The notes below the pieces were generated by a model that saw only the letters and a list, made by a program, of their open reading frames with translations, was not told the DNA's origin and did not search any database. The translations under genes and the position numbers were made by a program. From positions 7,157-71,156 of the forward strand of contig DASRWG010000001.1 of assembly GCA_035654695.1 (NCBI GenBank): DNA of 64,000 nt, in the 5' to 3' direction. Below are positions 17,051-49,770 of the stretch, piece by piece (position 1 is the first letter of the stretch; each line of letters begins with the position of its first letter). The DNA comes from Gallionella sp. (GTDB lineage: Bacteria > Pseudomonadota > Gammaproteobacteria > Burkholderiales > Gallionellaceae).

Positions 17051-18838
17051 ATGGCGAGTTCACCGGCGATAGATGGCGGGGTTGTCAGGCTGTCCCTGTT
17101 CAGCGAGGGGACGGCCCTGCCCGGCACGGTGCAGGTCGTATCCGTGTCGGTCAGGAAGACCATCAACAAGATACCGGTGGCCGAGATCGTCGTGCTGGAC
17201 GGCGACATGCCGCAGAAGGATTTCCCGGTCAGCAATGCCGCCTATTTCAAACCCGGCGGCGCGATAAAAATCAACGCCGGATACGGCTCCGATGAGGAGA
17301 CCATTTTCGAGGGCATCGTCGTCAAGCACGGCATCAAGATCACCGGCGACAATTATTCCCGGCTGGTCGTCGAATGCCGCGACAAGGCCGTCGCGATGAC
17401 CATAGGCCGCAAGAACGCCAACTATGTCGATTCGAAAGACAGCGACATCATCACCAAGCTCATCGGCAATTGCAGCGGGCTCACCGCCGATGTGGGAGCT
17501 ACCGATACGCAGTACAAAGAGCTGGTGCAGTACTACTGCACGGACTGGGATTTCATGCTGTCGCGCGCCGAGGTCAATGGCTTGCTGGTGATCGTGGATG
17601 CCGCCAAGGTGAGCGTCAAGGCGCCTGCGACCGACGGCACGCCCCAGTTGAAAATCACTTACGGCAGCGACTTGCTGGAGTTCCACGCCAACATCGATGC
17701 CAGAAACCAGTTCTCCAAGGTCGAAGGCGTCTCGTGGGACGTGAAAAATCAGGCCATCGTGGAGCAGCAGGCGACGCCGAAGACGCTGAACGAGCAGGGC
17801 GACCTGACTTCTGCCACGCTGGCCAAGGTCATCGGGCTGAGCGCATTCCGTCTCCAGACCCCGGCCCCGCTGGAAAGCGCCGCGCTGAAGTCATGGGCCG
17901 ATGCGCAGCAGGTCAAGTCCGGGCTGGCCAGAGTGCAGGGGCGCATGCGCTTTCAGGGCAGCGCCAAGGCCAAGGCGGGCGAACTGATCGAGATCGAGGG
18001 CGTGGGCAACCGCTTCAACGGCAAGGTGTTCGTCAGTTCCGTCCATCATCAGGTGACCGACGGAAACTGGACTACGGAAGCCGAATTCGGCATGCCGCAC
18101 GACTGGTTTGCCGAGAACCGCGACCTGGTCGCGCCGCCCGCATCGGGCTTGCTGCCGGGAATCGAAGGGCTGCATGTCGGCGTGGTGAAGAAACTGGATG
18201 CCGATCCGGAAGGGCAGTACAAAGTTCAGGTTTCGATTCCCGTGTTGAAGGCGGAAACGGACGGCGTGTGGGCCAGGCTGATGCAGTTCTACGCGTCCGA
18301 CGGCATCGGCGCGTTCTTCGTGCCGGAGATCGGCGACGAGGTCGTGCTCGGCTATTTCAACAACGATCCTTCCAACCCGGTGATTCTGGGCAGCCTGTAC
18401 AGCAGCAAGCGCAAGCCGTCCTACGAATTGACCGCGGACAATTTCAAGAAAGCCATCGTCACCAAGAGCAAACTCACGCTCGAATTCGACGACGACAAGA
18501 AAATCATCACCATCGTCACGCCGGGAAAAAACCAGATCGTGATTAGCGACGACGGCAAGTCCATCCTGCTGAAGGACCAGACCGGCAATCAGGCCAAGCT
18601 CAGCGAGGATGGCATCCTGCTGGATAGCCCCAAGGACATCACCATCTCCGCCAAGGGCAAGGTCAGTATCTCGGCCACGGGCAATGTGGAGATCGAGTCC
18701 AAGGCCGACTTCAAGGGCGACGCGCTGAACATCACCCACACCGCAAAGACCGGTTTCACGGCCAAGGGCAATGCCAGCGCCGAAATTTCCGCATCGGGCC
18801 AGACGACCGTAAAGGGCGCGATGGTCATGATTAATTGA
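17051..18838 (+). CDS. VgrG/Afp8-like spike protein
   Basis: INKIPVAEIVVLDG; VQYYCTDWDFMLSRAEVNG; gp5 OB-fold WARL...YA..G.G.FF.PEIGDEV.LG...DP..PVILGSLY; C-terminal beta-helix repeats. Confidence 0.93.
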   Translation: MASSPAIDGGVVRLSLFSEGTALPGTVQVVSVSVRKTINKIPVAEIVVLDGDMPQKDFPVSNAAYFKPGGAIKINAGYGSDEETIFEGIVVKHGIKITGDNYSRLVVECRDKAVAMTIGRKNANYVDSKDSDIITKLIGNCSGLTADVGATDTQYKELVQYYCTDWDFMLSRAEVNGLLVIVDAAKVSVKAPATDGTPQLKITYGSDLLEFHANIDARNQFSKVEGVSWDVKNQAIVEQQATPKTLNEQGDLTSATLAKVIGLSAFRLQTPAPLESAALKSWADAQQVKSGLARVQGRMRFQGSAKAKAGELIEIEGVGNRFNGKVFVSSVHHQVTDGNWTTEAEFGMPHDWFAENRDLVAPPASGLLPGIEGLHVGVVKKLDADPEGQYKVQVSIPVLKAETDGVWARLMQFYASDGIGAFFVPEIGDEVVLGYFNNDPSNPVILGSLYSSKRKPSYELTADNFKKAIVTKSKLTLEFDDDKKIITIVTPGKNQIVISDDGKSILLKDQTGNQAKLSEDGILLDSPKDITISAKGKVSISATGNVEIESKADFKGDALNITHTAKTGFTAKGNASAEISASGQTTVKGAMVMIN

Positions 18839-18845
18839 CGGGCTG

Positions 18846-19268
18846 ATGACGATGAGTGCCGATCAATCCTTTCTGGGCGCGGGCTGGGGATTCCCGCCCG
18901 AATTCAACCGCGATGCCGGGACGGTCCGGATGGTTCACGGCGCGGAGGATATCGACGAGAGCCTGCGCATCCTGATGGCCACCGTGCCCAAGGAGCGGGT
19001 CATGCAGCCCGCATACGGCTGCGGGCTGAAGCAACTGGTATTCGAAAGCATCAACGAAAGCACCCTGACGCTGATCCGGGATGCGATTGGGCGGGCCGTG
19101 CTTTATTTCGAGCCGCGGGTCGATCTGGAGGAGATCGAGATAGACGAAGAGCAGGCGCAAGAAGGCGTGCTGTTAATCAAACTCAACTACCGTGTCAGGA
19201 CGACGAACAGCAGAGCCAATCTGGTTTTCCCGTTCTATTTCCTGCAAGGCACTAACCTTTCCGCGTAA
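18846..19268 (+). CDS. gp25/GPW-like baseplate protein (Afp9-like)
   Basis: FLGAGWGFPPEF...DIDESL.IL..T...ERVMQP.YGC.L...FEPR....N..NLVFPFY...GT. Confidence 0.94.
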   Translation: MTMSADQSFLGAGWGFPPEFNRDAGTVRMVHGAEDIDESLRILMATVPKERVMQPAYGCGLKQLVFESINESTLTLIRDAIGRAVLYFEPRVDLEEIEIDEEQAQEGVLLIKLNYRVRTTNSRANLVFPFYFLQGTNLSA

Positions 19269-38516: not shown

Positions 38517-40145
38517 ATGCAACGAGTACAGAAACAAGGCAGCGAATCGGAAAACGCGCAACGCACCGCGCAAGCCAAATTTACGTCTTGGTCGCGCGAG
38601 AACGAGCGCGCGAATGCCATCGATGACAGCCCGGCGATGATCGCCCAGCGCAAGAAGCTCAACAGCTTGTTCGGCGGCGCGATACAACGACAGGGCGCGG
38701 AAGAAGAGATGCTGCAAGGAAAATTCGATGGCGTGCAGAGGGTAGAGGAAGAAGAGCCTCTGCAAGGAAAGTTCGAAACCGCACAACGCGTGGAAGAGGA
38801 AGAGCCGTTACAAGGAAAGTTCGATGTGGCTCAGCGAGTCGAAGAAGAAGAACCTTTGCAGGGGAAGTTTGAGGCGGTGCAGCGGGTAGAGGAAGAAGAG
38901 CCACTGCAAGGCAAATTCGAGACGGCCCAGCGCGTGGAGGATGAGGAACCTCTGCAAGGAAAGTTCGAAGCCGTGCAGCGAGTCGAAGAAGAGGAGCCGC
39001 TACAGGGAAAGTTTGAGGCAGCCTCATCCACCCAGTTGAAGGAAGAGGTCGCCAAGCCCAATAACACCGGCCTGCCGGACAATCTGAAGAGCGGCATAGA
39101 AAATCTTTCCGGCATGTCGATGGACAACGTCAAGGTCCACTACAACTCCTCGCAACCCGCGCAGCTCAACGCGTTGGCCTATGCGCAGGGTACCGACATC
39201 CATGTTGCACCCGGGCAGGAGCAACACCTGCCGCACGAAGCCTGGCATGTGGTGCAGCAGGCGCAGGGACGGGTGAAGCCTACCATGCAGATGAAGGAGG
39301 GCGTGCCGGTCAACGACGATAAGTCGCTGGAGCACGAGGCGGATGTGATGGGGGCGAAGGCGGCTTCAGTCGGAGTGGCGCAAGCAATGAACAAACTAAT
39401 CGAACCAAAGGTTGTTGGCTCTACCCCCTTTCAATGTAAGACTGAAATTGACAATAAATCAGTAGATCAAGCCTACCGTTCGGATGGTGATATATCTCAA
39501 CAAAGAATGGGCGTGGAAATGGAAGCATATCTAGATCCTTGGAATCCATTGCATGGAACTGAATCAGCCGCTTTCGACAGACATGGCATTTATCTTGATG
39601 AGGCATATAACGAAGGCAATGATGGTGCTACAGCCATGCATTTGTTGAATGCAAATTTAGGAGGGCTTGCTGTTGATGAAAATCTATTTCCCGGGCATAC
39701 AAATAAAAACGGACAACACCTGAAATCAGGTGAGACAGAGGTAAAGAACAAGGTGTTAACGTTGATGAATAATGGAAAGAAAGGATGGCGAGTATTTTAT
39801 AAGGTTAGATTTTCTCCGCCTTCAGTGCTTACGCCTGAGAACTTCACAACAGTACCTCTTCAAGTGCAGCATTGTTACGTGAGCCCAGAGGATCAAATGG
39901 TTCTGGACTGGGTAACGGTATCTGAAAAGCCTAATGTAGAGTTGGATGAGGCTGGCTGGAAAACTAGCACGAGCAAAGTCAGGAATAGAAGAGCAACACG
40001 GACGAGAAAATATCTGCATAAGAACACTGAAGGCGAAAGGGCAACTTTTGTAGAGCTCGTTAAGCATGAGGATGATCCAGATAGTGAGGCATTAAGATTC
40101 CACACTCATGTCGCACACGAAGACAAAGATGATTTGTTGAGTTAG
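38517..40145 (+). CDS. DUF4157 (eCIS core) effector 1 with N-terminal repeats and a predicted beta-beta-alpha-Me non-specific nuclease C-terminus
   Basis: [39 protein letters not shown]...[15 protein letters not shown] core; C-terminal [10 protein letters not shown]....NLFP....N..H....E..VK. AAGGAGG SD. Confidence 0.85.
38685..39023 (+). repeat. seven tandem 48-nt (16-aa) repeats [13 protein letters not shown][ED]xx
   Basis: One degenerate 17-aa unit plus six near-identical 16-aa units read from the translation. Confidence 0.95.
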
Positions 40146-40293
40146 TCATTACAGACGGAATCAATGCGATCGGATCAGTCCTCATTTATACACTTAATGT
40201 GGTGAGTTGATGGGGCCGCGGGGCAATGGGAGCAGACCTCATTGAACTTAATAATGAAGATGAAGAGAGCAACACGCAACCGATAACCGAAAG

Positions 40294-43167
40294 ATGATCT
40301 CGCTTCTTTACCTGATACGACTCTTTGCCCTGCTCGTGCTGCTCTGCGCCGCGCCCGCGTTCGCCGTCACTCCGATGGTGGCGGCGGGTTACGGTCATAC
40401 GGTCGCGCTGAAATCAGACGGCACGGTTTCGGCATGGGGCGACAACGCGCAAGGGCAACTGGGGATAGGCAGCATGGATTATCGCCTGACCCCGGCAGCC
40501 ATTCCGGAATTTACCGGCATCGCTGACTTGTCGGCGGGGCGTGAGCACACGCTGGCGCTAAAGTCGGACGGCACGGTGTGGGCATGGGGCGGAAACTATC
40601 CCAACGGGCAACTGGGCGATGACTCGCTGACGTCGCAATCGAGTCCCGTTGTTGTGCCGGAACTGAAAGATGTCGCCGCAGTGGTGGCGGGGGGCTGGCA
40701 CAGCCTCGCGCTGAAATCGGACGGCTCGGTGCTGGCTTGGGGTAAAAACGTTTCGGGCCAAGTGGGTGATGGCAGCAAGGTGGCGCGGCCCTCGCCGGTG
40801 GCGATTCAGGAGCTTGTAGGCGTACGCGCTATTGCGGCGGGCGAGGCGCACAGCGCGGCGCTGAAATCCGATGGCACGGTCTGGGCGTGGGGCGACAACG
40901 CGCATGGGCAGCTCGGCGACGGCACTGTGCTGGGCCGTCTGGCTCCGGTGAGGGTGCAGGGGATCGATGGCGTAGTGGCGATTGCGGCGGGCGGCAATCA
41001 CACGGTTGCGTTGAAGGCGGACGGTACGGTGTGGGCGTGGGGCGGCAACGCACACGGACAACTCGGCAATGAAAACACGGCGGACAGTTCGGTTCCGGTG
41101 CGGGTGCTGGGGCTCGATGGAGTGATTTCGATCACGGCGGACGGCGGCTTTACGCTGGCGTTGAAAGCGGATCATACGGTGTGGGCGTGGGGCGATAACT
41201 CGCATGGACAACTCGGCGACGGCACTACGACGGATCGCTCCAATCCGGTACAGGTGCCGAACCTTGTCGGTGTAGTGGCGATTGCTGCGGGCGAGGGGCA
41301 TGCGGTTGCGTTGAAAGCGGACGGCACGGTGGTCGCGTGGGGCTGGAACTATTCCGGCCAAGTGGGCGATGACAGTTGGGGGATAGATCGCTCGAGTCCT
41401 GTCGCGGTGTTGGGTGAACTCAATTTAGGAAGCAGCCAGATCGATGCGGAGCAGAGTGTGAGTTTCGGCGACGCGCCGCAGCTTGCCGCGGGGCAGCGCG
41501 CCAGGGTCAAGGCCGTAGCGAGTTCAGACCTCGCCGTGCATTTCTCCAGCACGACGCCTGCCGTCTGCATGGTCATCGGCGACGAGGTCAGCGCGACTGC
41601 GGCGGGCGAGTGCATCGTCGCCGCCGATCAAGCGGGCGACGGACATTACCGCGCCGCACCGCGCGCGATGCAGCGCATCCCCGTCGGCAAGGGCAGCCAG
41701 ACCATCGCTTTCGGTGTTGCGCCGCTGGTCATCGTGGGCAGCAGCGGAAAGCTGCGCGCCGCCGCCAGTTCCGGCCTTGCACCGGTTTTCGGCAGCCTGA
41801 CGCCCGACGTGTGCAGCGTCAGCGGCGACACCTTGAGCGGTATCGACGAAGGCATTTGCGTCGTCTCCGCGAACCAGCCGGGCAATGCCGACTACAACTC
41901 GGCCACGCCGGAGAAACAGTCCAGCCGCATCCACGAGACCATCTTCATCATGCCCAGAATGGCGGCGGGCGGCGCGCACAGCATGTGCCTCAAGTACGAC
42001 GGCACGGTGAGCGCGTGGGGCGACAACTCGCAAGGGCAGCTCGGCAGCGGCGGCTCGGGGCAGCAGCGTAGCCAGATCGGAATTTCCAGCCTCAAGAGCG
42101 TGCTGTCGCTGTCCGCGGGCATGTACCACACCGTCGCGCTGATGTTCGGCGGCACGGTGCAGACCTGGGGCGATAACGACAAGGGGCAACTGGGCGATGG
42201 CGGCAAGCAACGGCGCGATACGCCTGCAACGGTGCCGGGGCTCAGCGATGTGCGCGACGTGGCGGCGGGCGGCTGGCACAGCGTTGCGCTGATGAACGAC
42301 GGTACGGTGCGGGCGTGGGGCATGAACAACAACGGCCAGTTGGGCGACGGCAGCACGATGGATCGAACCGGCCCCGTTGCGGTGAAGGGTCTCGCCGACG
42401 TGAAAGCGATTGCGGCGGGACGCGATTTCACCGTGGCGCTGAAAAACGACGGGACGCTGTGGGCCTGGGGCAACAACGCGCACGGCCAACTGGGCGACGG
42501 CACGACGCTGAATCGCAACGCGCCGGTGCAGGTCGCGGGATTGAAAGACGTGCTAGTCGTGGCAGCGGGAGGGGCTTACACGCTGGCGACCAAGTCCGAC
42601 GGCACGGTGTGGTCGTGGGGAAAAAACGATACCGGCCAGTTGGGCAACGGCTCTCTGGACGAAAGCTACAAGCCGACGCTGGTGCCCAAGCTCGCCAAGG
42701 CGCTCGCGCTCGCGGCAGGCAGCGAACACGCGCTGGCGTTGCTGGAGGGCGGCGCGCTGCTGGCTTGGGGCGACAACACCTACGGGCAACTGGGCAACGG
42801 CACGATCAAGGCAAGCACCGTGCCGGTCCCCGTGGCAAAGATCGCCGACGTCATCGCCGTGGCGGCGGGGGACGGGCACAGCGTGGCGCTCAAGGCAGAC
42901 GGCACGAAAATGTCTTGGGGCAACAACAGCGCGGGGCAACTGGGCGACGGCAGCACGAAGAATCACTCCCTCCCGGCGGAAGTGCCGGAGCCGCTGGGAT
43001 GGAAAGTGTGGCTGTGGTTGTGGGATCAGATCAAGGCGCTGCCGGACAAGCTGATGGGTTTGCAGAAGATGCTGGCTGCGCCCGAACTGCCGCCGTTGCC
43101 GCCGCTGCCTCCGATACCGGAAGTGCCTAAGGTGGAGATGCCGAAGCTGGAGGCACCCAAGAAGTAG
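40294..43167 (+). CDS. secreted RCC1/BLIP-II-repeat protein: two beta-propellers joined by two Ig-like linker domains, Pro-rich tail
   Basis: Sec signal (LLVLLCAAPAFA); many AAG..HT.ALK.DGTVWAWG.N..GQLGDG repeats in two blocks; middle Q.I.F....A.ASSGL...F.S.TP.VC units. Confidence 0.9.
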   Translation: MISLLYLIRLFALLVLLCAAPAFAVTPMVAAGYGHTVALKSDGTVSAWGDNAQGQLGIGSMDYRLTPAAIPEFTGIADLSAGREHTLALKSDGTVWAWGGNYPNGQLGDDSLTSQSSPVVVPELKDVAAVVAGGWHSLALKSDGSVLAWGKNVSGQVGDGSKVARPSPVAIQELVGVRAIAAGEAHSAALKSDGTVWAWGDNAHGQLGDGTVLGRLAPVRVQGIDGVVAIAAGGNHTVALKADGTVWAWGGNAHGQLGNENTADSSVPVRVLGLDGVISITADGGFTLALKADHTVWAWGDNSHGQLGDGTTTDRSNPVQVPNLVGVVAIAAGEGHAVALKADGTVVAWGWNYSGQVGDDSWGIDRSSPVAVLGELNLGSSQIDAEQSVSFGDAPQLAAGQRARVKAVASSDLAVHFSSTTPAVCMVIGDEVSATAAGECIVAADQAGDGHYRAAPRAMQRIPVGKGSQTIAFGVAPLVIVGSSGKLRAAASSGLAPVFGSLTPDVCSVSGDTLSGIDEGICVVSANQPGNADYNSATPEKQSSRIHETIFIMPRMAAGGAHSMCLKYDGTVSAWGDNSQGQLGSGGSGQQRSQIGISSLKSVLSLSAGMYHTVALMFGGTVQTWGDNDKGQLGDGGKQRRDTPATVPGLSDVRDVAAGGWHSVALMNDGTVRAWGMNNNGQLGDGSTMDRTGPVAVKGLADVKAIAAGRDFTVALKNDGTLWAWGNNAHGQLGDGTTLNRNAPVQVAGLKDVLVVAAGGAYTLATKSDGTVWSWGKNDTGQLGNGSLDESYKPTLVPKLAKALALAAGSEHALALLEGGALLAWGDNTYGQLGNGTIKASTVPVPVAKIADVIAVAAGDGHSVALKADGTKMSWGNNSAGQLGDGSTKNHSLPAEVPEPLGWKVWLWLWDQIKALPDKLMGLQKMLAAPELPPLPPLPPIPEVPKVEMPKLEAPKK

Positions 43168-43184
43168 GAGCGCTTATAAAACAG

Positions 43185-43213
43185 CCGTTCGTGGTGAGCC
43201 TGTCGAACCATGA
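43185..43213. repeat. REP-like half element
   Basis: CCGTTCGTGGTGAGCCTGTCGAACCATGA resembles the widespread CGTTCGxxxTGAGCCTGTCGAA intergenic repeat; only one arm is seen. Confidence 0.45.
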
Positions 43214-43246
43214 ATGGCGGAATAGGGGAATGGAAGGATAGCGAGC

Positions 43247-44542
43247 ATGCAAAAAGCCGAAGCGCAACATAACCACGCGCAGCCCGCCGTGCGACAGGGC
43301 AAGGGCGCATCGCTCGAATCGCCGCAGGGCGAACGGATCGCGCAACTCGAAGCGATGGCCGAGAGCAGCCCGCAGGCAGGCAAGCTAGCTCAACTCGCGG
43401 TGATGGTCGATTCCAGTCCGGCGATGGCAGCGCAACGCAAGCTGATTGGGCAGGCACATGGCAGTCCAGCGATGACGGCTCAGAGCAAAGCTGTCAATGG
43501 TATCGCTCAGCGCGCCGAGACTCCGGCCAAGCCGAACAATACCGGCCTGCCGGACAACCTCAAGAGCGGTATCGAGTCGCTCTCCGGCATGTCGATGGAC
43601 AACGTCAAGGTGCATTACAACTCATCGCAGCCGGCGCAACTCAACGCGCTGGCCTATGCGCAGGGCACCGACATCCACGTCGCACCGGGGCAGGAACAGC
43701 ATCTGCCGCATGAGGCTTGGCATGTGGTGCAGCAGGCGCAGGGGAGGGTGAGGCCGACGATGCAGCTGAAGGATGGCGTGCCAGTCAACGACGATGCCGG
43801 GCTGGAGCACGAGGCGGATGTGATGGGAATGAAGGCACTTGAATCACGAAATGGTACTGAGGGAGCCGGCTTCAGCGTGGCGTCCAACCAGCCCCGCCAA
43901 TTGTTCAGTCCCAAATCAAGTGAATTTCCGGTACAGCGTATCGTGTATTTCGCGGACAACAATGGGGAATCTCCTGCATTGGCAGCTCCACCCCAAGGTG
44001 GGGTCGTATGGGTTAGCCCGCTTGGCGATGTAAACAATACGCTTTACGGGACTTCTGCACTTGCCAACCAGGCCGTGCGGGGGCTGCTCGGTGTTGGTGA
44101 CGCTGAGCCAACGGCAGAGGCGGAATGCTATGCAGGTCCCGCCCAGAATGGTCCATATTTTTACTGGTGGGATGATGATCAAGCGCCGACGACAGTGAAA
44201 ATAATGCCGACTCATACCCAAGACGGCACAAACCAGTTATATCGCTTCTCGAATACGGAGGTGTCCGTTTATACGCCTGTCGTGCACAACCATGCGGCCC
44301 AGATACAAGCAGAGAATTCTGGTGCTGCATGGGCAATTTCGGCCAATCCGGCGTTGCCGTACGTTCCTTACCCTAATGCATTGAATCACTACTTGCACAA
44401 ACCTGCAGTAGCAGGATCAATGAAACTCAAGCAAGAAGTCTCCCTGAAGTTAAAAACTGCATCGTCCAAGGGGGAGGACAAGACTTACGCAAAAGACACA
44501 TTCGAAAAGGCGGCCAAGAGTGGAGTTGCATCGCTTGTTTAA
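43247..44542 (+). CDS. DUF4157 effector 2 with an unrecognised C-terminal domain
   Basis: Same DUF4157 core (43529-43835, HEAWH), followed by an unrelated ~230-aa region. Confidence 0.85.
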   Translation: MQKAEAQHNHAQPAVRQGKGASLESPQGERIAQLEAMAESSPQAGKLAQLAVMVDSSPAMAAQRKLIGQAHGSPAMTAQSKAVNGIAQRAETPAKPNNTGLPDNLKSGIESLSGMSMDNVKVHYNSSQPAQLNALAYAQGTDIHVAPGQEQHLPHEAWHVVQQAQGRVRPTMQLKDGVPVNDDAGLEHEADVMGMKALESRNGTEGAGFSVASNQPRQLFSPKSSEFPVQRIVYFADNNGESPALAAPPQGGVVWVSPLGDVNNTLYGTSALANQAVRGLLGVGDAEPTAEAECYAGPAQNGPYFYWWDDDQAPTTVKIMPTHTQDGTNQLYRFSNTEVSVYTPVVHNHAAQIQAENSGAAWAISANPALPYVPYPNALNHYLHKPAVAGSMKLKQEVSLKLKTASSKGEDKTYAKDTFEKAAKSGVASLV

Positions 44543-44590
44543 TGTATGGGTACAGAAATATCGAAGACTCGACAATAGGGAAAGATATAA

Positions 44591-46438
44591 ATGCCAAACA
44601 GTGCACGCGCAGCATTGCACCTGACCAACGATCCCATCATCTCTAAAAGCCAGAACGAGAGTCTGGCGCGGATGGTGCGGAACGTTCACGAGAAATGCTT
44701 TAAAGCGGGAGAGACGATCTACAAGGCGCATGCCGATGCCGACACGCTTTACCTGATCGAGAGCGGGACGGTGGAACTGGTCACGCCTGAGGGCAAGCGC
44801 GTGACGATGGACGGGACGCGCTTCGGTGAGGAGGCTGCGACGGATGTGCCTTGCTATCTTTCCGACGCCGTTGCGGTCACCGATGTGGTCGCGTTCAGCG
44901 TGCCGCGCACCAGCTTGATCGGGCTGAACCAGTACAACCCGGGACACAAGGCGGAGTTCTATTTTTCGCTGTTGGCGAATTTCGGCGGGGAGGAGGTGCG
45001 TCGCGCATCGACGGCGCAGTCCGCGCGCCACAAGCCGAAGGAGCGCGATGGCATCGAGGCGTTCGGTTGGGCGCTGGCGATCCTGATTCCGCTGGGGATC
45101 ATGATGTTCGCGGGCGACTGGGGCGTCGGGCGCGAGGTGAAGACCTTCCTCGCGATTTTCAGCGCGGCGATCGTGATGTGGGTGTTCGAGCTCGTCGATG
45201 AGTTCATCCCCGGATTGTTCGCGGTGCTGATGATCCTCGCGATGGGGCTCGCGCCGCCCAAGGTGGTGTTGGGCGGCTTCGCCTCCGACGGCTTCTTCAT
45301 GGCGATGAGCATTCTCGGGCTGGGCACCGTGGTGGTGTATTCCGGGCTGAGTTTCCGCTGCCTGTTGTGGCTGCTGCGCTACCTGCCCGGTACGAACATC
45401 GGACACAACTTCGGCCTGCTGTTCACAGGCTACCTGATTAATCCGGTGATCCCTTCGATCAACGCTCGCACGGTGATGATGGCGCCGTTCCTGATCGACA
45501 TGGTGGAGACGGTGAAATTCCATTTGCGCGGCAAGGCGGCGACGCGGCTGGCGATTGCGGCCTTTACCGGGGCGACGCTGTTCTCGGCGACTTTCCTGAC
45601 CAGCCGTTCGATCAACTTCGTGATCTACGGCATGCTGTCACCACAGGAGCAGCAGCATTTCTCGTGGATCTACTGGCTGTTCTCGACCTCGGTCGCGGCC
45701 ATTGCGATGCTGGCGTTGTACCTGATCGCGGTCAAGCTGATGTTCGGCAGCGCGGAGAAGCCACAATTGTCGAAGCAGCAGGTCAATGTCCAGATGCAGT
45801 TGCTGGGGAAAATCAAGCAGCGCGAGTGGGCCGCCATCGCCGGCATCGTGCTGTTTACCATCGGCATCGTCACCACCTCCATCCACAATATCCAGCCGCC
45901 GTGGATGGGCATGGCGATACTCTACGGTCTGCTGCTGTTCGGTTTCCTGAGCCGTAGCGAGTTCAAGGAGAAGACCGACTGGCCGGGACTGGTCTATCTC
46001 GGCACACTGATCGGCGTCATCGCTACGTTCAACTATCTCGGGCTGGACAAGTGGCTGACCGCCGAACTCTCAGTGCTGGGCGAGGTGTTGAGCAAGAGTT
46101 TCGGCCTGTTCGTCGCGCTGCTCTTCGTGGTGATCTTCGTGATGCGGCTGGCCTTCCCGAATACCGCGACCATTGCCATCTGCGCGACCATTTTCATGCC
46201 GGTTGCAAGCCAGGCCGGTGTGAATCCCTGGGTAATCGGCTTCATTCTGCTGCTGCTCGGCGACATGTGGGTCTTCCCCTACCAGTGCCCGCATTACCAG
46301 CAGTTCCAGGAACTGGTGCGCGAGAAGCGCATATACGACGAGGGGATGTTCCTCAAATTTAACATGCTGATGAATTTTGTCCGGCTGGCCGGTATTTATG
46401 CCGCGATTCCGTTCTGGGCTGCGCTGGGGTTGCTATGA
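44591..46438 (+). CDS. cyclic-nucleotide-binding-like domain fused to an SLC13/DASS-family permease
   Basis: F..GETIY.....AD.LYLIESG.V...FGEEA (cNMP fold), then ~12 hydrophobic helices with DASS-like signatures (IF..A..MW...,P...AR...M.P,...S...F.T....N). Confidence 0.82.
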   Translation: MPNSARAALHLTNDPIISKSQNESLARMVRNVHEKCFKAGETIYKAHADADTLYLIESGTVELVTPEGKRVTMDGTRFGEEAATDVPCYLSDAVAVTDVVAFSVPRTSLIGLNQYNPGHKAEFYFSLLANFGGEEVRRASTAQSARHKPKERDGIEAFGWALAILIPLGIMMFAGDWGVGREVKTFLAIFSAAIVMWVFELVDEFIPGLFAVLMILAMGLAPPKVVLGGFASDGFFMAMSILGLGTVVVYSGLSFRCLLWLLRYLPGTNIGHNFGLLFTGYLINPVIPSINARTVMMAPFLIDMVETVKFHLRGKAATRLAIAAFTGATLFSATFLTSRSINFVIYGMLSPQEQQHFSWIYWLFSTSVAAIAMLALYLIAVKLMFGSAEKPQLSKQQVNVQMQLLGKIKQREWAAIAGIVLFTIGIVTTSIHNIQPPWMGMAILYGLLLFGFLSRSEFKEKTDWPGLVYLGTLIGVIATFNYLGLDKWLTAELSVLGEVLSKSFGLFVALLFVVIFVMRLAFPNTATIAICATIFMPVASQAGVNPWVIGFILLLLGDMWVFPYQCPHYQQFQELVREKRIYDEGMFLKFNMLMNFVRLAGIYAAIPFWAALGLL

Positions 46439-47466
46439 CGAAAAAACTGAAAAACTGGCTGGTGGTCGCATTCCTGCTGCTGGTCGTCTTCCTGCTGTTC
46501 TGGTTCAAGGCGACGCAGCCCAGGGTGCTGGTGATACATAGCTACGACCCTGACTATGCATGGACGCGGGATGTCGATACCGGTCTCCATCGAGTGTTCG
46601 ATAGCAACCTGCACCATAAGGTCCAGTGGCACTACATGAACACCAAGAAACATCCTGACGCCGAATTCAAGCGCCGGGCGGGCATGCTCGCTACGCGTGA
46701 GATCGAGCGTTTTCGTCCCGACGTGATTATCGCGGTCGACGACGATGCGCAGAAATATGCAGTGAAGGAATACGCCAAAGACCCTAAGGTCAGGATCGTG
46801 TTCGGCGGCCTCAACGGTTCCGCAGTGCCATACAACTACCACCTCTCGAAGAACGCGACCGGTATCTACGAACGCAAGCCGCTCGGCAGCTTGCTCAGCA
46901 TGTTGTCCGAGGTGCGCGACGGGGCGGGAATGCCGCTCGGGAAACGCATCGTTCACATCGGGGATCGATCCGATTCCGTCATGGAAGACAGCAAGGCCAT
47001 CGAGTCCATGGACTGGACGCCATTCCGGCTGGTTGCCTCGATGCACGCCGGCACTCTGGACGAATGGAAGCGCGCCGTTCTGGAGGCTTCGGAAAAGGGC
47101 GACTTGATCCTCATCTCGAATTACCAGAATGTCCTGCGGCAGGACGGAAAAGACGGTTTCGTGCCGCCCGCCGAACTCATGGAGTGGACCGAAGCCAATT
47201 CCCGTATACCCGTGGTCGGGATGGGCGGCTTCATGGTGGAAGACGGCGGCATGCTCGCCGTGGGCGCTTCCGGCTTCGAACAGGGCGACGTGATCGCGCG
47301 CATGACCATGAGGATACTGGATGAGGAAATCAGTCCCGGCGACATTCCGCACGTCATGCCGCGCCAGTACCTGGTCTACATGCGCCAGGCGGTGATGGAG
47401 AAACGGGGGCTCAAGCTGCCGGATATCTACGAGGCGTTTTCGCGGGCGTCGAACAACTATCATTGA
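46435..47466 (+). CDS. membrane-anchored ABC-type substrate-binding-like (sensor-like) periplasmic protein
   Basis: N-terminal TM; RVLVIHSYDPDYAWT; PDVIIAVDDDAQ; IVFGG.N; PV.G...F.V..GG.L.V.....EQG...A. ATGA overlap with the permease. Confidence 0.78.
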   Translation: MTKKLKNWLVVAFLLLVVFLLFWFKATQPRVLVIHSYDPDYAWTRDVDTGLHRVFDSNLHHKVQWHYMNTKKHPDAEFKRRAGMLATREIERFRPDVIIAVDDDAQKYAVKEYAKDPKVRIVFGGLNGSAVPYNYHLSKNATGIYERKPLGSLLSMLSEVRDGAGMPLGKRIVHIGDRSDSVMEDSKAIESMDWTPFRLVASMHAGTLDEWKRAVLEASEKGDLILISNYQNVLRQDGKDGFVPPAELMEWTEANSRIPVVGMGGFMVEDGGMLAVGASGFEQGDVIARMTMRILDEEISPGDIPHVMPRQYLVYMRQAVMEKRGLKLPDIYEAFSRASNNYH

Positions 47467-47511
47467 AGATCAGTCCGCTTTCGCTAACGGGAGCATACGG
47501 GGGAGAGGTAT

Positions 47512-48960
47512 ATGCAAAAAGCCGAACCGCAACAAAAGCCAATTCAGAACCAATCCGCCCAGCGGCAGGGGCATGGCGTCTCGCTCGAATCTCCGCAGGG
47601 CGAACGGATCGCGCAACTCGAAGCGATGGCAGCGAGCAGTTCCCAGACGGGCAGGTTGGCGCAGCTCGCGGGGATGGCGAACACCAGCCCGCGCATGGCC
47701 GCGCAACGCAAGGCGATCCGCGCCATTCACAACAGTCCGAACGTGACCGCGCAGCGGCAACAGATCGACAGCCTTACCGGGGGAACCGCGCAGCGCAAGG
47801 AGGCGGAAGAGCCGCTGCAAGCAAAAGTCGCACAGCGCGAAGCCGCGCCTGTCAAACCGAATAACACCGGCCTGCCCGACAACCTCAAGTCCGGCATCGA
47901 GAATCTTTCCGGCATGTCCATGGACAACGTGAAGGTCCACTACAACTCATCGCAGCCTGCGCAACTCAATGCGCTGGCCTACGCGCAAGGGGCCGATATT
48001 CACGTTGCACCCGGACAGGAGCAGCACCTGCCGCATGAGGCCTGGCACGTGGTGCAGCAGGTGCAGGGGCGCGTGCAGCCGACGATGCAGATGAAGGAAG
48101 GAGTCCCGGTCAACGACGATGCAGGTCTGGAGCGCGAGGCGGATGTGATGGGGGCGAAAGCAGTCTCAGTTGGAGCGGTGCAAGCGAAACGATCAATCGA
48201 GTCTGCCCCCATTGATGCAAAACTTGACCTCATTAATACACCAGCTAGGAATCACGACTACAACCTCCAGTTATTTCACAACAATACCCATGCACCTGTT
48301 GTTCAGCGTATAGGTCCCAGCTATATTCCAAAGGAAGATGGACCCAATGCATTTATCGATCAAGCCCCGGCAACAGCAGGAGTAGTCTCCTTTGACAATG
48401 TCGCAGATGCATTTTATGCAGGATTACCGAGTGAACATGTCAGTGAAATTGAAATTATTGGTGGAATAGACACTTACGCCAATGATGCTGGAGGCGGTGA
48501 TGTTGTACGGACAGGAGACGTCAATCCGGTAATTGGACAAATTGATCACATCGTTCCACGCTCGCGTGGTGGTGGTACTTCATTTCGCAACGCGCAATTA
48601 GTGGATGCGCCAACAAATAATGCTAAAAACGATGCCTATCCTTGTCCAATCAGTAATCTCAACGGTACGCGGGTGTTTCTTGGAACATCCAAATGGAATA
48701 TGCCAGCAGGTACCATCCTTGCGACAGATTTCGCGTCGCAAAGAATACAAATTTTGGAAAATGCGCGTGTGCCAAAAAATCTGGGAGTCACATTGTATGA
48801 AACAGCCGGGGCCGGACAGGGGACGCAAATTACTGCTGAGACTCAGACTGCAGCGCGAAATCATTATGTACCGGAGAACGATACTGAACTTCAGTGGTTA
48901 AGCTACGACGAAGCACGCGCGAACGGACTTGCTCCAGGCGAAGGAGGACCGTTGGCCTAA
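47512..48960 (+). CDS. DUF4157 effector 3 with an HNH endonuclease motif
   Basis: DUF4157 core at 47854-48160; C-terminal QIDHIVPRSRGGGTSFRNAQLVDAPTNNAKND. Confidence 0.85.
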   Translation: MQKAEPQQKPIQNQSAQRQGHGVSLESPQGERIAQLEAMAASSSQTGRLAQLAGMANTSPRMAAQRKAIRAIHNSPNVTAQRQQIDSLTGGTAQRKEAEEPLQAKVAQREAAPVKPNNTGLPDNLKSGIENLSGMSMDNVKVHYNSSQPAQLNALAYAQGADIHVAPGQEQHLPHEAWHVVQQVQGRVQPTMQMKEGVPVNDDAGLEREADVMGAKAVSVGAVQAKRSIESAPIDAKLDLINTPARNHDYNLQLFHNNTHAPVVQRIGPSYIPKEDGPNAFIDQAPATAGVVSFDNVADAFYAGLPSEHVSEIEIIGGIDTYANDAGGGDVVRTGDVNPVIGQIDHIVPRSRGGGTSFRNAQLVDAPTNNAKNDAYPCPISNLNGTRVFLGTSKWNMPAGTILATDFASQRIQILENARVPKNLGVTLYETAGAGQGTQITAETQTAARNHYVPENDTELQWLSYDEARANGLAPGEGGPLA

Positions 48961-48987
48961 ATTGACGTTGAACTAAGCCGCTTCACA

Positions 48988-49021
48988 CGGTGGTTGGGGG
49001 AAACCAACCACCGCGTTGTTG
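48988..49021 (+). terminator. hairpin after effector 3
   Basis: CGGTGGTTGG-GGGAAA-CCAACCACCG, perfect 10-bp stem followed by CGTTGTTG. Confidence 0.6.
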
Positions 49022-49148
49022 TCTGTAAAAATCGATGGGGTCAGACTCCATTGAACGTGGCCAACAAAACGACAAAAATAACCAAGCGGCCTATCGATCC
49101 GATCATCTCCATCGATTCACGAGATTATTCAAGACAAGACTACATCAC

Positions 49149-49292
49149 ATGCAAAACAATCAAGAAAAACAAGTCAGGCTGCCATGCCCGAATTGCGGCA
49201 TACAGATTCAGGTTTGGGGTGCGCATCTGCTTTATGCGCAGACAATTCGTTGCGATGCATGCGGGGTGGAACTGGCGCTGGATAAGGAATAA
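49149..49292 (+). CDS. 47-aa zinc-ribbon-like small protein
   Basis: MQNNQEKQVRLPCPNCG...IRCDACGVELALDKE, two CxxC motifs. Confidence 0.55.
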   Translation: MQNNQEKQVRLPCPNCGIQIQVWGAHLLYAQTIRCDACGVELALDKE

Positions 49293-49380
49293 TCGGGTTC
49301 CGCGCTCGATGCGTTGGGAGATCGGATGACTGGGGCCGGACACCATTGATTCCGCGAAACAGAATTTTCAGGAGGGATAA

Positions 49381-49770
49381 ATGGGCCAGCAAGTCTGCAT
49401 GAACGCCGTGATGCAATGCAGTTTCGGCATGGCGCCGAGCTCGCTGATGGTGTTACCCAAGAACCGGGTGATGACGGGCAATGTGCCGGATGCAAACATC
49501 ATGGACAACATTCCGTTCGTTAATATTCTGCCGTTCGGGATGTGCCAGAGTTTGGCCAACCCCGCGGTGGCGGCGGCGACTGCGGCGGCTTTGGGGGTGT
49601 TGACGCCGATGCCATGCACGCCGATGACGGCTGCGCCCTGGGCACCGGGCTGCGCGACGGTGATGATCGCCAACATGCCCGCGCTGAACAATTCTTCCAA
49701 GCTGATGTGTTCGTTCGGCGGGGTGATCTCGATCAACTTTGCCGGGCAGGCGACGGTTAATATTCCGTGA
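49381..49770 (+). CDS. DUF4280 PAAR-like spike-tip protein
   Basis: A..QCSFG.APS.L.V; ANIMD..P..NI.PFG.C.S.ANP.VA; PC.P....PW.PG; L....KLMC..GG.I. GGAGG SD. Confidence 0.9.
   Translation: MGQQVCMNAVMQCSFGMAPSSLMVLPKNRVMTGNVPDANIMDNIPFVNILPFGMCQSLANPAVAAATAAALGVLTPMPCTPMTAAPWAPGCATVMIANMPALNNSSKLMCSFGGVISINFAGQATVNIP

Follow-up and report, generated by a model that had tools for sequence, protein, structure and literature searches.

Candidate cargo toxins with a conserved DUF4157 core and replaced tails at a Gallionella contractile injection system locus

When several genes of one locus carry the same domain and end in unrelated sequences, what is exchanged, and where does the exchange begin? 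The question is raised by a 64,000-nt stretch of Gallionella sp. DNA (assembly GCA_035654695.1, contig DASRWG010000001.1, positions 7,157 to 71,156 of the forward strand; hereafter the window), in which three DUF4157 genes, g1, g2 and g3, adjoin a contractile injection system (CIS) locus of the Photorhabdus virulence cassette (PVC) or extracellular CIS (eCIS) type, with sheath, gp19 tube, gp25 and AAA ATPase genes all present. A prediction made from the sequence alone (the original prediction) had described the three genes as a polymorphic effector set with a fixed core of 307 nt, and had proposed that this core acts as a DNA recombination cassette for acquiring new C-terminal payloads, as in the rearrangement hotspot (Rhs) and contact-dependent growth inhibition (CDI) systems. 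We find that the tails are replaced at a boundary right after the residues EADVMGAKA, and we consider it probable that g1, g2 and g3 are cargo toxins of the CIS encoded upstream, each built of three modules of which the last is replaced past this boundary.

A common core and tails replaced at orthologous slots

The three genes are located on the forward strand at 38517-40145 (g1, 542 aa), 43247-44542 (g2, 431 aa) and 47512-48960 (g3, 482 aa). All three open reading frames (ORFs) exceed the gathering score of PF13699 (22 bits), with 36.2, 34.7 and 35.6 bits, respectively; the family is named eCIS core domain in current Pfam, was formerly DUF4157 and is also known as PVC-metallopeptidase. The order of modules is the same in each protein: an N-terminal region, a zincin-like core with the signature HExxHxxQ...E, and a variable tail. 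The cores (KPNNTGLP...HEAWHVVQQ...EADVMGAKA in g1) occupy 39042-39368, 43517-43843 and 47842-48168 (+ strand), compared to the slightly shorter 39054-39360, 43529-43835 and 47854-48160 given in the original prediction. HEAWH is present in all three, and the longer HEAWHVVQQ as well as the Glu of (L)E(H)EADVMG ~30 residues further on are invariant among g1-g3 and at least 0.99 conserved in 111 relatives. EADVMG is probably the last structural element of the domain, a helix with the zinc-ligand Glu, because the signature Glu is placed on the third helix by Zhang et al. (2012; PMC3482391). Among the window ORFs of at least 60 aa, a hidden Markov model (HMM) of the core matched g1-g3 alone, and the core profile had no match among PDB sequences.

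As anticipated, the three copies of the core are colinear over 300-307 nt with zero indels, as seen by MAFFT three-way alignment, ungapped comparison and a repeat search (family D4; 39053-39352, 43528-43827 and 47853-48152), and thus constitute direct repeats spaced 4.3-4.5 kb. Exactly three copies of the 17-mer GAGGCGGATGTGATGGG are present in the window (39336-39352, 43811-43827 and 48136-48152), compared to a chance expectation of none. The core is not fixed, however, given 85% nt identity in every pair and protein identity at 94-96 of the 102 residues. The conserved block also extends three codons past EADVMG (AKA in g1 and g3, MKA in g2), and g1 and g3 only are alike for ~12 residues more (AKAxSVGxxQA, with 23 of the next 30 nt identical); the proposed boundary at EADVMG holds as the place where sequences are exchanged but not as the end of conservation. 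Similarly, the tails are indeed unrelated, but homology is not confined to the core. The N-terminal regions are homologous too, with g2 and g3 matching over 163 nt at 79% (repeat D6) and SPxMxAQRK-type motifs common to g1, g2 and g3, such that this region is similar among the cargo paralogs of the system.

The evidence for replacement comes from orthologous slots in related genomes, the nearest of which are Gallionella metagenome-assembled genomes (MAGs) with 86-89% nt identity. In JALNYK01 (loci L006 and L026), the flanking genes encode proteins closely similar to those of the window (AAA ATPase 93%, 1031-aa protein 92%, methyltransferase 86%, RCC1-repeat protein 85%, transporter 94% and DUF4280 98% identity). 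The JALNYK01 ortholog of g1 is 87% identical over residues 1-282 and unrelated beyond, and that of g3 is 79% identical over residues 1-224 and again unrelated beyond. For the syntenic Gallionella loci, sliding nt identity is 80-95% over the N-terminal region and core, drops to ~35% at 39330-39360 and 48115-48145, and recovers at ~40300, where the RCC1 gene starts, and at 49361, just 5´ of the DUF4280 gene. The core protein of the L007 g1 ortholog is 100% identical, with unrelated sequence from the residue after AKA, and the same pattern of a retained N-terminal region and core with a different tail was detected in L025 and L019. At the orthologous slots of all five loci (L006, L007, L019, L025 and L026), orthologs therefore do not keep the same tails. 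The replaced segments correspond to tail 1 with its downstream spacer (39362-40300, + strand; no homology to the syntenic loci L006 and L007) and to tail 3 with a 400-nt spacer that includes a possible zinc-ribbon ORF (48154-49356, + strand; absent from the syntenic L026). The exact window sequence occurs in soil metagenomes. In groundwater metagenomes, contigs from related populations span the flanks and the cores and have zero depth at 39585-40001, 44172-44588 and 48342-48758.

Relatives with the same core and other tails are common beyond these slots. Clustering of the tails joined to this core (60 aa or longer) placed 95 tails from 78 loci in 76 clusters, 62 of them singletons, in agreement with the description of the genes as a polymorphic effector set on a CIS locus. 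The recognizable tail domains are mostly nucleases (10 Endonuclea_NS_2, three WHH, three Colicin-DNase, EndoU and NucA), together with calpain-like and M91 peptidases and a glycosyltransferase. A first impression that fused forms are rare came from the ranking of the core-profile search, whose best 120 matches are all shorter than 190 aa; this ranking probably favours short targets, and the impression was ruled out by the genome scan, in which 95 of the 111 core copies have tails. Tail-less natural forms, ending 2-10 residues past EADVMG, account for 14 of the 111. We also noted that, in Nitrosomonas supralitoralis (PXXU01000001.1; L004 11124-13540), the first DUF4157 gene is tail-less and the second is interrupted within the core by a frameshift (...HVVQQKQGGG / ...VKATMQMKGKVHINDD...EADVM), followed by a GDPD phosphodiesterase tail. 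The split gene is either a pseudogene or the result of a sequencing error.

The tails are also AT-richer, as had been noted from the sequence, and do not match the genome in composition. GC content is 0.605-0.624 in the cores compared to 0.43, 0.525 and 0.48 in tails 1, 2 and 3, and GC at third codon positions (GC3) is 0.78-0.83 in the cores, 0.375, 0.51 and 0.37 in the tails and 0.68-0.84 in neighbouring genes, with the fall in GC3 occurring within ~90 nt of the core/tail junction. Selection, on amino-acid composition or for throttled translation of toxic domains, might account for the low tail GC in place of a recent foreign origin. In line with such selection, GC3 is lower in the tail than in the core in 94% of the 95 fusions, in hosts of many GC contents, tail GC follows host GC (r = 0.70), and the core is GC-enriched relative to its host locus in 89% of loci. 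The window tails, however, are 6-16 GC points under the window mean, compared to an average deficit of 2.7 points across the fusions. In addition, the untranslated spacers 3´ of the tails are replaced along with the tails, and the orthologous slots contain unrelated tails. We regard selection as a rather unlikely explanation for the compositional break, and favour horizontal acquisition of the tails.

Constancy of the core and the route of exchange

The likeness of the three cores raises the possibility of recent duplication, or of ongoing gene conversion among the paralogs, for which colinear, indel-free copies with 94-96 of 102 residues identical would be expected. The paralogous cores nevertheless show a dS of 0.77-0.92 and a dN/dS of 0.05-0.08, with longest common exact runs of 18-29 nt, and gene conversion among g1-g3 was rejected on dS. 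Across the Gallionella genomes, core DNA is 89-90% identical between slot-1 orthologs and 85-86% identical between paralogs, so that the paralogs are no closer to each other than to orthologs in other genomes; the cores do not cluster by genome, and there is therefore no concerted evolution. An equal level of protein identity is seen across phyla, with core proteins 80-94% identical in Nitrosomonas, Methylobacter, Massilia, Chitinophaga, Acidobacteriota, Cyanobium and others. Together these observations make recent duplication or conversion extremely improbable. Because dS is high, concerted evolution is absent and protein identity is retained across phyla, we ascribe the constancy of the core to functional constraint; judged from these comparisons, it is purifying selection on the protein domain that keeps the cores alike.

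The pattern of conservation among the 111 core copies can be followed along the domain. Between NNTGLP and EADVMGxKA, conservation is at least 0.9 at nearly all positions, and amino-acid conservation collapses directly past AKA. Synonymous heterozygosity is 0.4-0.7 over most of the core and dips only at D104 (0.21) and V105 (0.28) of EADVMG. As a separate observation, the core subfamily keeps at least 80% protein identity among Proteobacteria, Bacteroidota, Acidobacteriota, Cyanobium and an actinobacterial MAG (loci L006-L083). An accessory domain would not normally be so alike across these groups, and the level suggests a conserved partner or frequent transfer of the whole system.

We then considered the proposal that the 307-nt core is itself a DNA homology cassette, in which new tails are captured, as in the orphan-module recombination of Rhs/CDI systems, by RecA-type crossovers located inside the core or at its 3´ end and involving either incoming or paralogous copies. 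In its favour are the location of the breakpoints at the core 3´ end in five ortholog comparisons and the arrangement of the three cores as direct repeats 4.3-4.5 kb apart, with exact runs of up to 29 nt in common. Identity to L007 is 95% in the final ~100 nt of the core and 80-88% upstream, and in L019 the types of N-terminal region and core occupy different slots; a comparable recombination process was also proposed by Zhang et al. (2012). On the other hand, cores with only 85% identity and a dS of about 0.8 show no sign of concerted evolution, and no broad fall in synonymous diversity is seen along the core or the junction, where only D104 and V105 are lower. Neither the core HMM on ORFs nor the repeat search, which returned three copies only, revealed orphan core fragments or displaced tails in the window. 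The right-hand breakpoint would moreover require a second homology, beyond what the core can supply.

Carriers of exchanged toxins that do not have a core also bear on the cassette proposal. In the JALNYK01 slot orthologous to g2 (L006 14368-15039), a 223-aa protein joins a g2-type N-terminal region (58% identity over 72-74 residues) to a WHH nuclease with no core between them. Two coreless orthologs of 1288 and 1422 aa, in JALNYK01 (L026 5673-9539) and DASTGP01 (L025 5378-9646), are 74% identical over ~1113 residues and end in WHH-like and Endonuclea_NS_2 domains, respectively. Since coreless carriers in the same island swap toxins, toxin replacement there does not need the core. The claim of a recombination cassette thus finds no support in the divergence of the cores or in the behaviour of the coreless carriers, and we consider it unlikely, while homology-assisted crossovers near the core 3´ end are possible. 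We favour instead the view that the breakpoint falls at the core end because a domain boundary is located there, such that a swap leaves both parts functional.

Tails, N-terminal regions and a model for modular cargo

Tail 1 (39369-40142, + strand; GC 0.43) is a putative nuclease domain of a divergent Endonuclea_NS_2 type (beta-beta-alpha-metal), with the motif HLLNxxLGG...NLFP...N..H, as suggested by its homologs, the motif and profile comparison. A search among 5.8 billion clusters gave 11 homologs, in which the H...N...N..H residues are invariant. The direct match to Endonuclea_NS_2 (PF13930) is below threshold (14.6 vs 27 bits, E 0.04); hhalign comparison to Endonuclea_NS_2-positive tails gave 99.3% and E 3e-20. 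The AlphaFold model has a mean predicted local distance difference test score (pLDDT) of 68, with the motif region modelled at low confidence, and the tail-1 profile had no match among PDB sequences. Tail 2 (43844-44539, + strand) belongs to a rare family with the conserved His-rich motifs THTxD, HxHA and DHYLxKP, as documented by its relatives, their alignment and the model. A word-index protein search gave no match for this tail, and an exhaustive representative search found nine relatives among 1.84 billion representatives; the model is confident (pLDDT 82, predicted template modelling score 0.77). Tail 3 (48169-48957, + strand) carries an HNH_4 endonuclease motif at residues 343-377 (nt 48538-48642; PF13395, E 8.6e-5), and its comparison to PDB sequences gave just two weak Cas9 HNH matches (E 0.12 and 0.41). 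An NCBIfam scan added nothing. By sequence and profile comparison, tails 1 and 3 are predicted to be His-Me-finger nucleases, and tail 2 is predicted to have a fold without match in the PDB.

Homologs of tails 1 and 2 are preceded by similar N-terminal regions, some with an intervening core and some without; most tail 1 homologs and half of the tail 2 homologs are coreless and joined straight to such a region. The N-terminal regions are enriched for the motif [AVILMF]-Q-[RK], with 423 occurrences observed vs 71 expected (z = 41) when the window genes and loci L006-L083 were taken together, and the motif-rich stretches of the window correspond to 38517-39041 in g1, 43247-43516 in g2 and 47512-47841 in g3 (+ strand). 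The first 60 tail residues are also enriched (67 observed vs 14 expected, z = 15), and the rest of the tails are at chance level. Typical sites are ~20 residues before the core and ~30 after it, immediately ahead of the toxin fold, and in coreless homologs the motif is again found immediately ahead of the toxin domain. Given this positioning, the hydrophobic-Gln-Arg/Lys motif might be a specific recognition or cleavage site at which the DUF4157 zincin cuts, in cis or in trans from the tail-less forms of 170-240 aa, to free the toxin from its loading signal. We regard this reading as quite doubtful; if true, it would provide the eCIS core domain with a defined substrate. We also noted that the N-terminal region of g1 contains a tandem repeat of 6.6 copies of a 48-nt unit, encoding acidic units of 16 aa (38699-39013, + strand; Tandem Repeats Finder and repeat D5). 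The same unit was detected in different copy numbers in the orthologs of L006, L007 and Nitrosomonas supralitoralis.

Combining these observations, we propose a model of three modules. The first, a putatively disordered N-terminal region rich in hydrophobic-Gln-Arg/Lys motifs, would be the loading signal, recognized with the help of the AAA ATPase, by analogy with Cgo1 and Cgo2 of AlgoCIS. The second, the PVC-metallopeptidase/DUF4157 zincin-like domain, held near-invariant by purifying selection, may be a releasing peptidase or an accessory in loading or folding. The third would be the C-terminal toxin, with two predicted His-Me-finger nucleases and one fold without a PDB match among g1-g3. 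The paralogs would be old, and the unit of turnover would be the segment that begins just past EADVMGAKA and extends up to where the next conserved gene starts, replaced by horizontally acquired toxin cassettes of lower GC content. Breakpoints would be seen at domain boundaries since only such products survive, and the DNA of the core would be no special substrate for recombination.

Several observations weigh against the view that g1-g3 are toxic cargo of this CIS. Loading and toxicity of g1-g3 are predictions, and the search for RNA runs containing the sequence returned DNA metagenomes only, with no RNA or proteomic data found. For the models of tails 1 and 2, Foldseek searches against the PDB gave nothing better than E 0.4 (best E 0.47 for tail 2), so the nuclease call for tail 1 draws on profile homology and motifs without a PDB structural match. 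Two coreless tail-1 homologs (P0123 and P0125) have no CIS genes within 10 kb, and one of these is found among transposases. The gaps after g1 and g2, of 149 nt and 49 nt, contain no ORF, neither gene is followed by an immunity gene, and the sole candidate immunity or accessory gene in the spacer downstream of g3 is a doubtful zinc-ribbon ORF of 47-85 aa (49149-49292, CPNC...CDAC). Lastly, part of the GC contrast between core and tail is supplied by the enrichment of the core. A 111-aa ORF at 48994-49329 was also considered as an immunity gene and dropped, given its TTG start, an odd composition rich in R, W and C, and the absence of its exact sequence from the protein collection. It overlaps the zinc-ribbon ORF and looks spurious.

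Related systems and neighbouring genes

A constant N-terminal PVC-metallopeptidase with the HExxHxxQ...E signature ahead of variable C-terminal toxins was described by Zhang et al. (2012; PMC3482391), who proposed a recombinational origin for this architecture and predicted autoproteolytic release of the toxin by the metallopeptidase. The architecture and its recombinational origin were also described by Geller et al. (2021; PMC8213781), and DUF4157 is a marker of eCIS toxins (Geller et al., 2021; Danov et al., 2024, PMC11297309). The genes in the window resemble these toxins in the constant zincin-like domain ahead of highly variable, mostly nuclease tails, in their occurrence as multiple genes within a genome, at the 3´ end of the locus for a phage-tail-like injection system, and in the frequent absence of immunity genes. 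There is no categorical difference. Particular to this case are the replacement at EADVMGAKA, seen by direct comparison of orthologous slots, one tail family without a fold match, and a core that some genes with this type of N-terminal region have and others lack, even where the slots correspond. The locus therefore adds a clear case of a toxin architecture known since 2012; it does not represent a new type of system, nor does it belong to the Rhs/CDI group.

The AlgoCIS proteins Cgo1 and Cgo2 are tube-lumen cargo whose loading needs the N-terminal region, with DUF4157 dispensable, and the toxicity of Cgo1 is independent of HExxH (Xu et al., 2022, PMC8894135; bioRxiv 10.64898/2026.05.27.728243). 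As for g1-g3, where disorder is putative, a disordered N-terminal region similar between paralogs precedes a central DUF4157 domain and different C-terminal domains, and the genes are in the CIS cluster. Unlike Cgo1 and Cgo2, for which loading into the lumen, its need for the N-terminal region and the dispensability of DUF4157 were shown by experiment, g1-g3 are predicted cargo; the host is a Betaproteobacterium rather than one of the Bacteroidota, and the three genes are interspersed with non-CIS genes. The PVC effectors Pdp1 and Pnf and the effectors of metamorphosis-associated contractile structures, with an N-terminal signal and no DUF4157, have the same layout as the coreless Gallionella relatives, whereas g1-g3 all keep DUF4157.

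The likeness to Rhs proteins and to CdiA-CT of CDI systems is a demarcation motif (DPxGL or VENN there, EADVMGAKA here) followed by variable, AT-richer tips that differ between close relatives. In contrast to these systems, neither Rhs/YD nor filamentous-haemagglutinin repeats are among the Pfam matches of g1-g3, the predicted vehicle is a phage-tail-like particle instead of a type VI or type V secretion system, no cognate immunity gene directly follows g1 or g2, and there are no orphan tip/immunity arrays with core fragments. The conserved region is also too diverged in DNA to display homology-driven exchange of the kind documented in Rhs/CDI systems.

The established picture of polymorphic eCIS toxins is unchanged by these findings. 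The Gallionellaceae slots nevertheless constitute a natural experiment in which the putative loading region and DUF4157 are kept and the toxin and spacer are replaced at one boundary, and this boundary offers practical guidance for the design of payload fusions on injection systems of this type. DUF4157 as an optional middle module bears on the question of its role, and two poorly characterized candidate toxin families are added, a divergent Endonuclea_NS_2 clade and a His-rich domain without a solved fold relative.

The window is chromosomal, with thrS, pheS and pheT upstream, surE, pcm and an M23 peptidase gene downstream, and a complete CIS island between them. Pfam scans place the CIS structural block at 11925-34964 (+ strand), where genes were detected for Pvc16_N, the sheath, two gp19 tubes, CIS_tube, a VgrG-like spike, gp25 (18846-19268), a CIS tape measure of 2517 aa and the AAA ATPase, as well as baseplate ORFs without Pfam matches. 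Beyond this block, the island continues with the 1031-aa protein and the methyltransferase, then the three DUF4157 genes interleaved with others, and the DUF4280 gene last. The RCC1-repeat protein between g1 and g2 (40294-43167, + strand; 957 aa), identified by Pfam and synteny, has ~14 repeats of 150 nt, carries a Sec-type signal peptide at its N terminus and lies outside the DUF4157 family; it keeps its position between effector genes in Gallionella, a Zetaproteobacteria MAG (L013) and a Rhodocyclaceae MAG (L027). A cNMP-domain transporter of the Na/sulfate-symporter family and an ABC substrate-binding protein are encoded between g2 and g3 (44591-47466), with host-like GC3 and a position kept in all close Gallionella loci. 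The island is closed by the DUF4280 (PAAR-like) gene (49381-49770, + strand), whose product is 95-98% identical in L026, L025 and L019 and 77% identical in L016. This is the only PAAR-like gene found, and its location at the 3´ end of the island, past the effectors, is 30 kb from the VgrG-like spike gene (17051-18838).

Two further features of the window were noted. At 2517 aa, the tape-measure protein (26026-33579) is very long; it is internally repetitive, and tblastn comparison to relatives aligns the same segments at several offsets. In the intergenic region between the RCC1 gene and g2, the 29-mer CCGTTCGTGGTGAGCCTGTCGAACCATGA (43185-43213) is single-copy in the window, but the groundwater metagenome contigs show a depth spike of 310-912 vs ~15 at this site and many loose ends; it looks like a widespread interspersed repeat resembling repetitive extragenic palindromic (REP) sequences.

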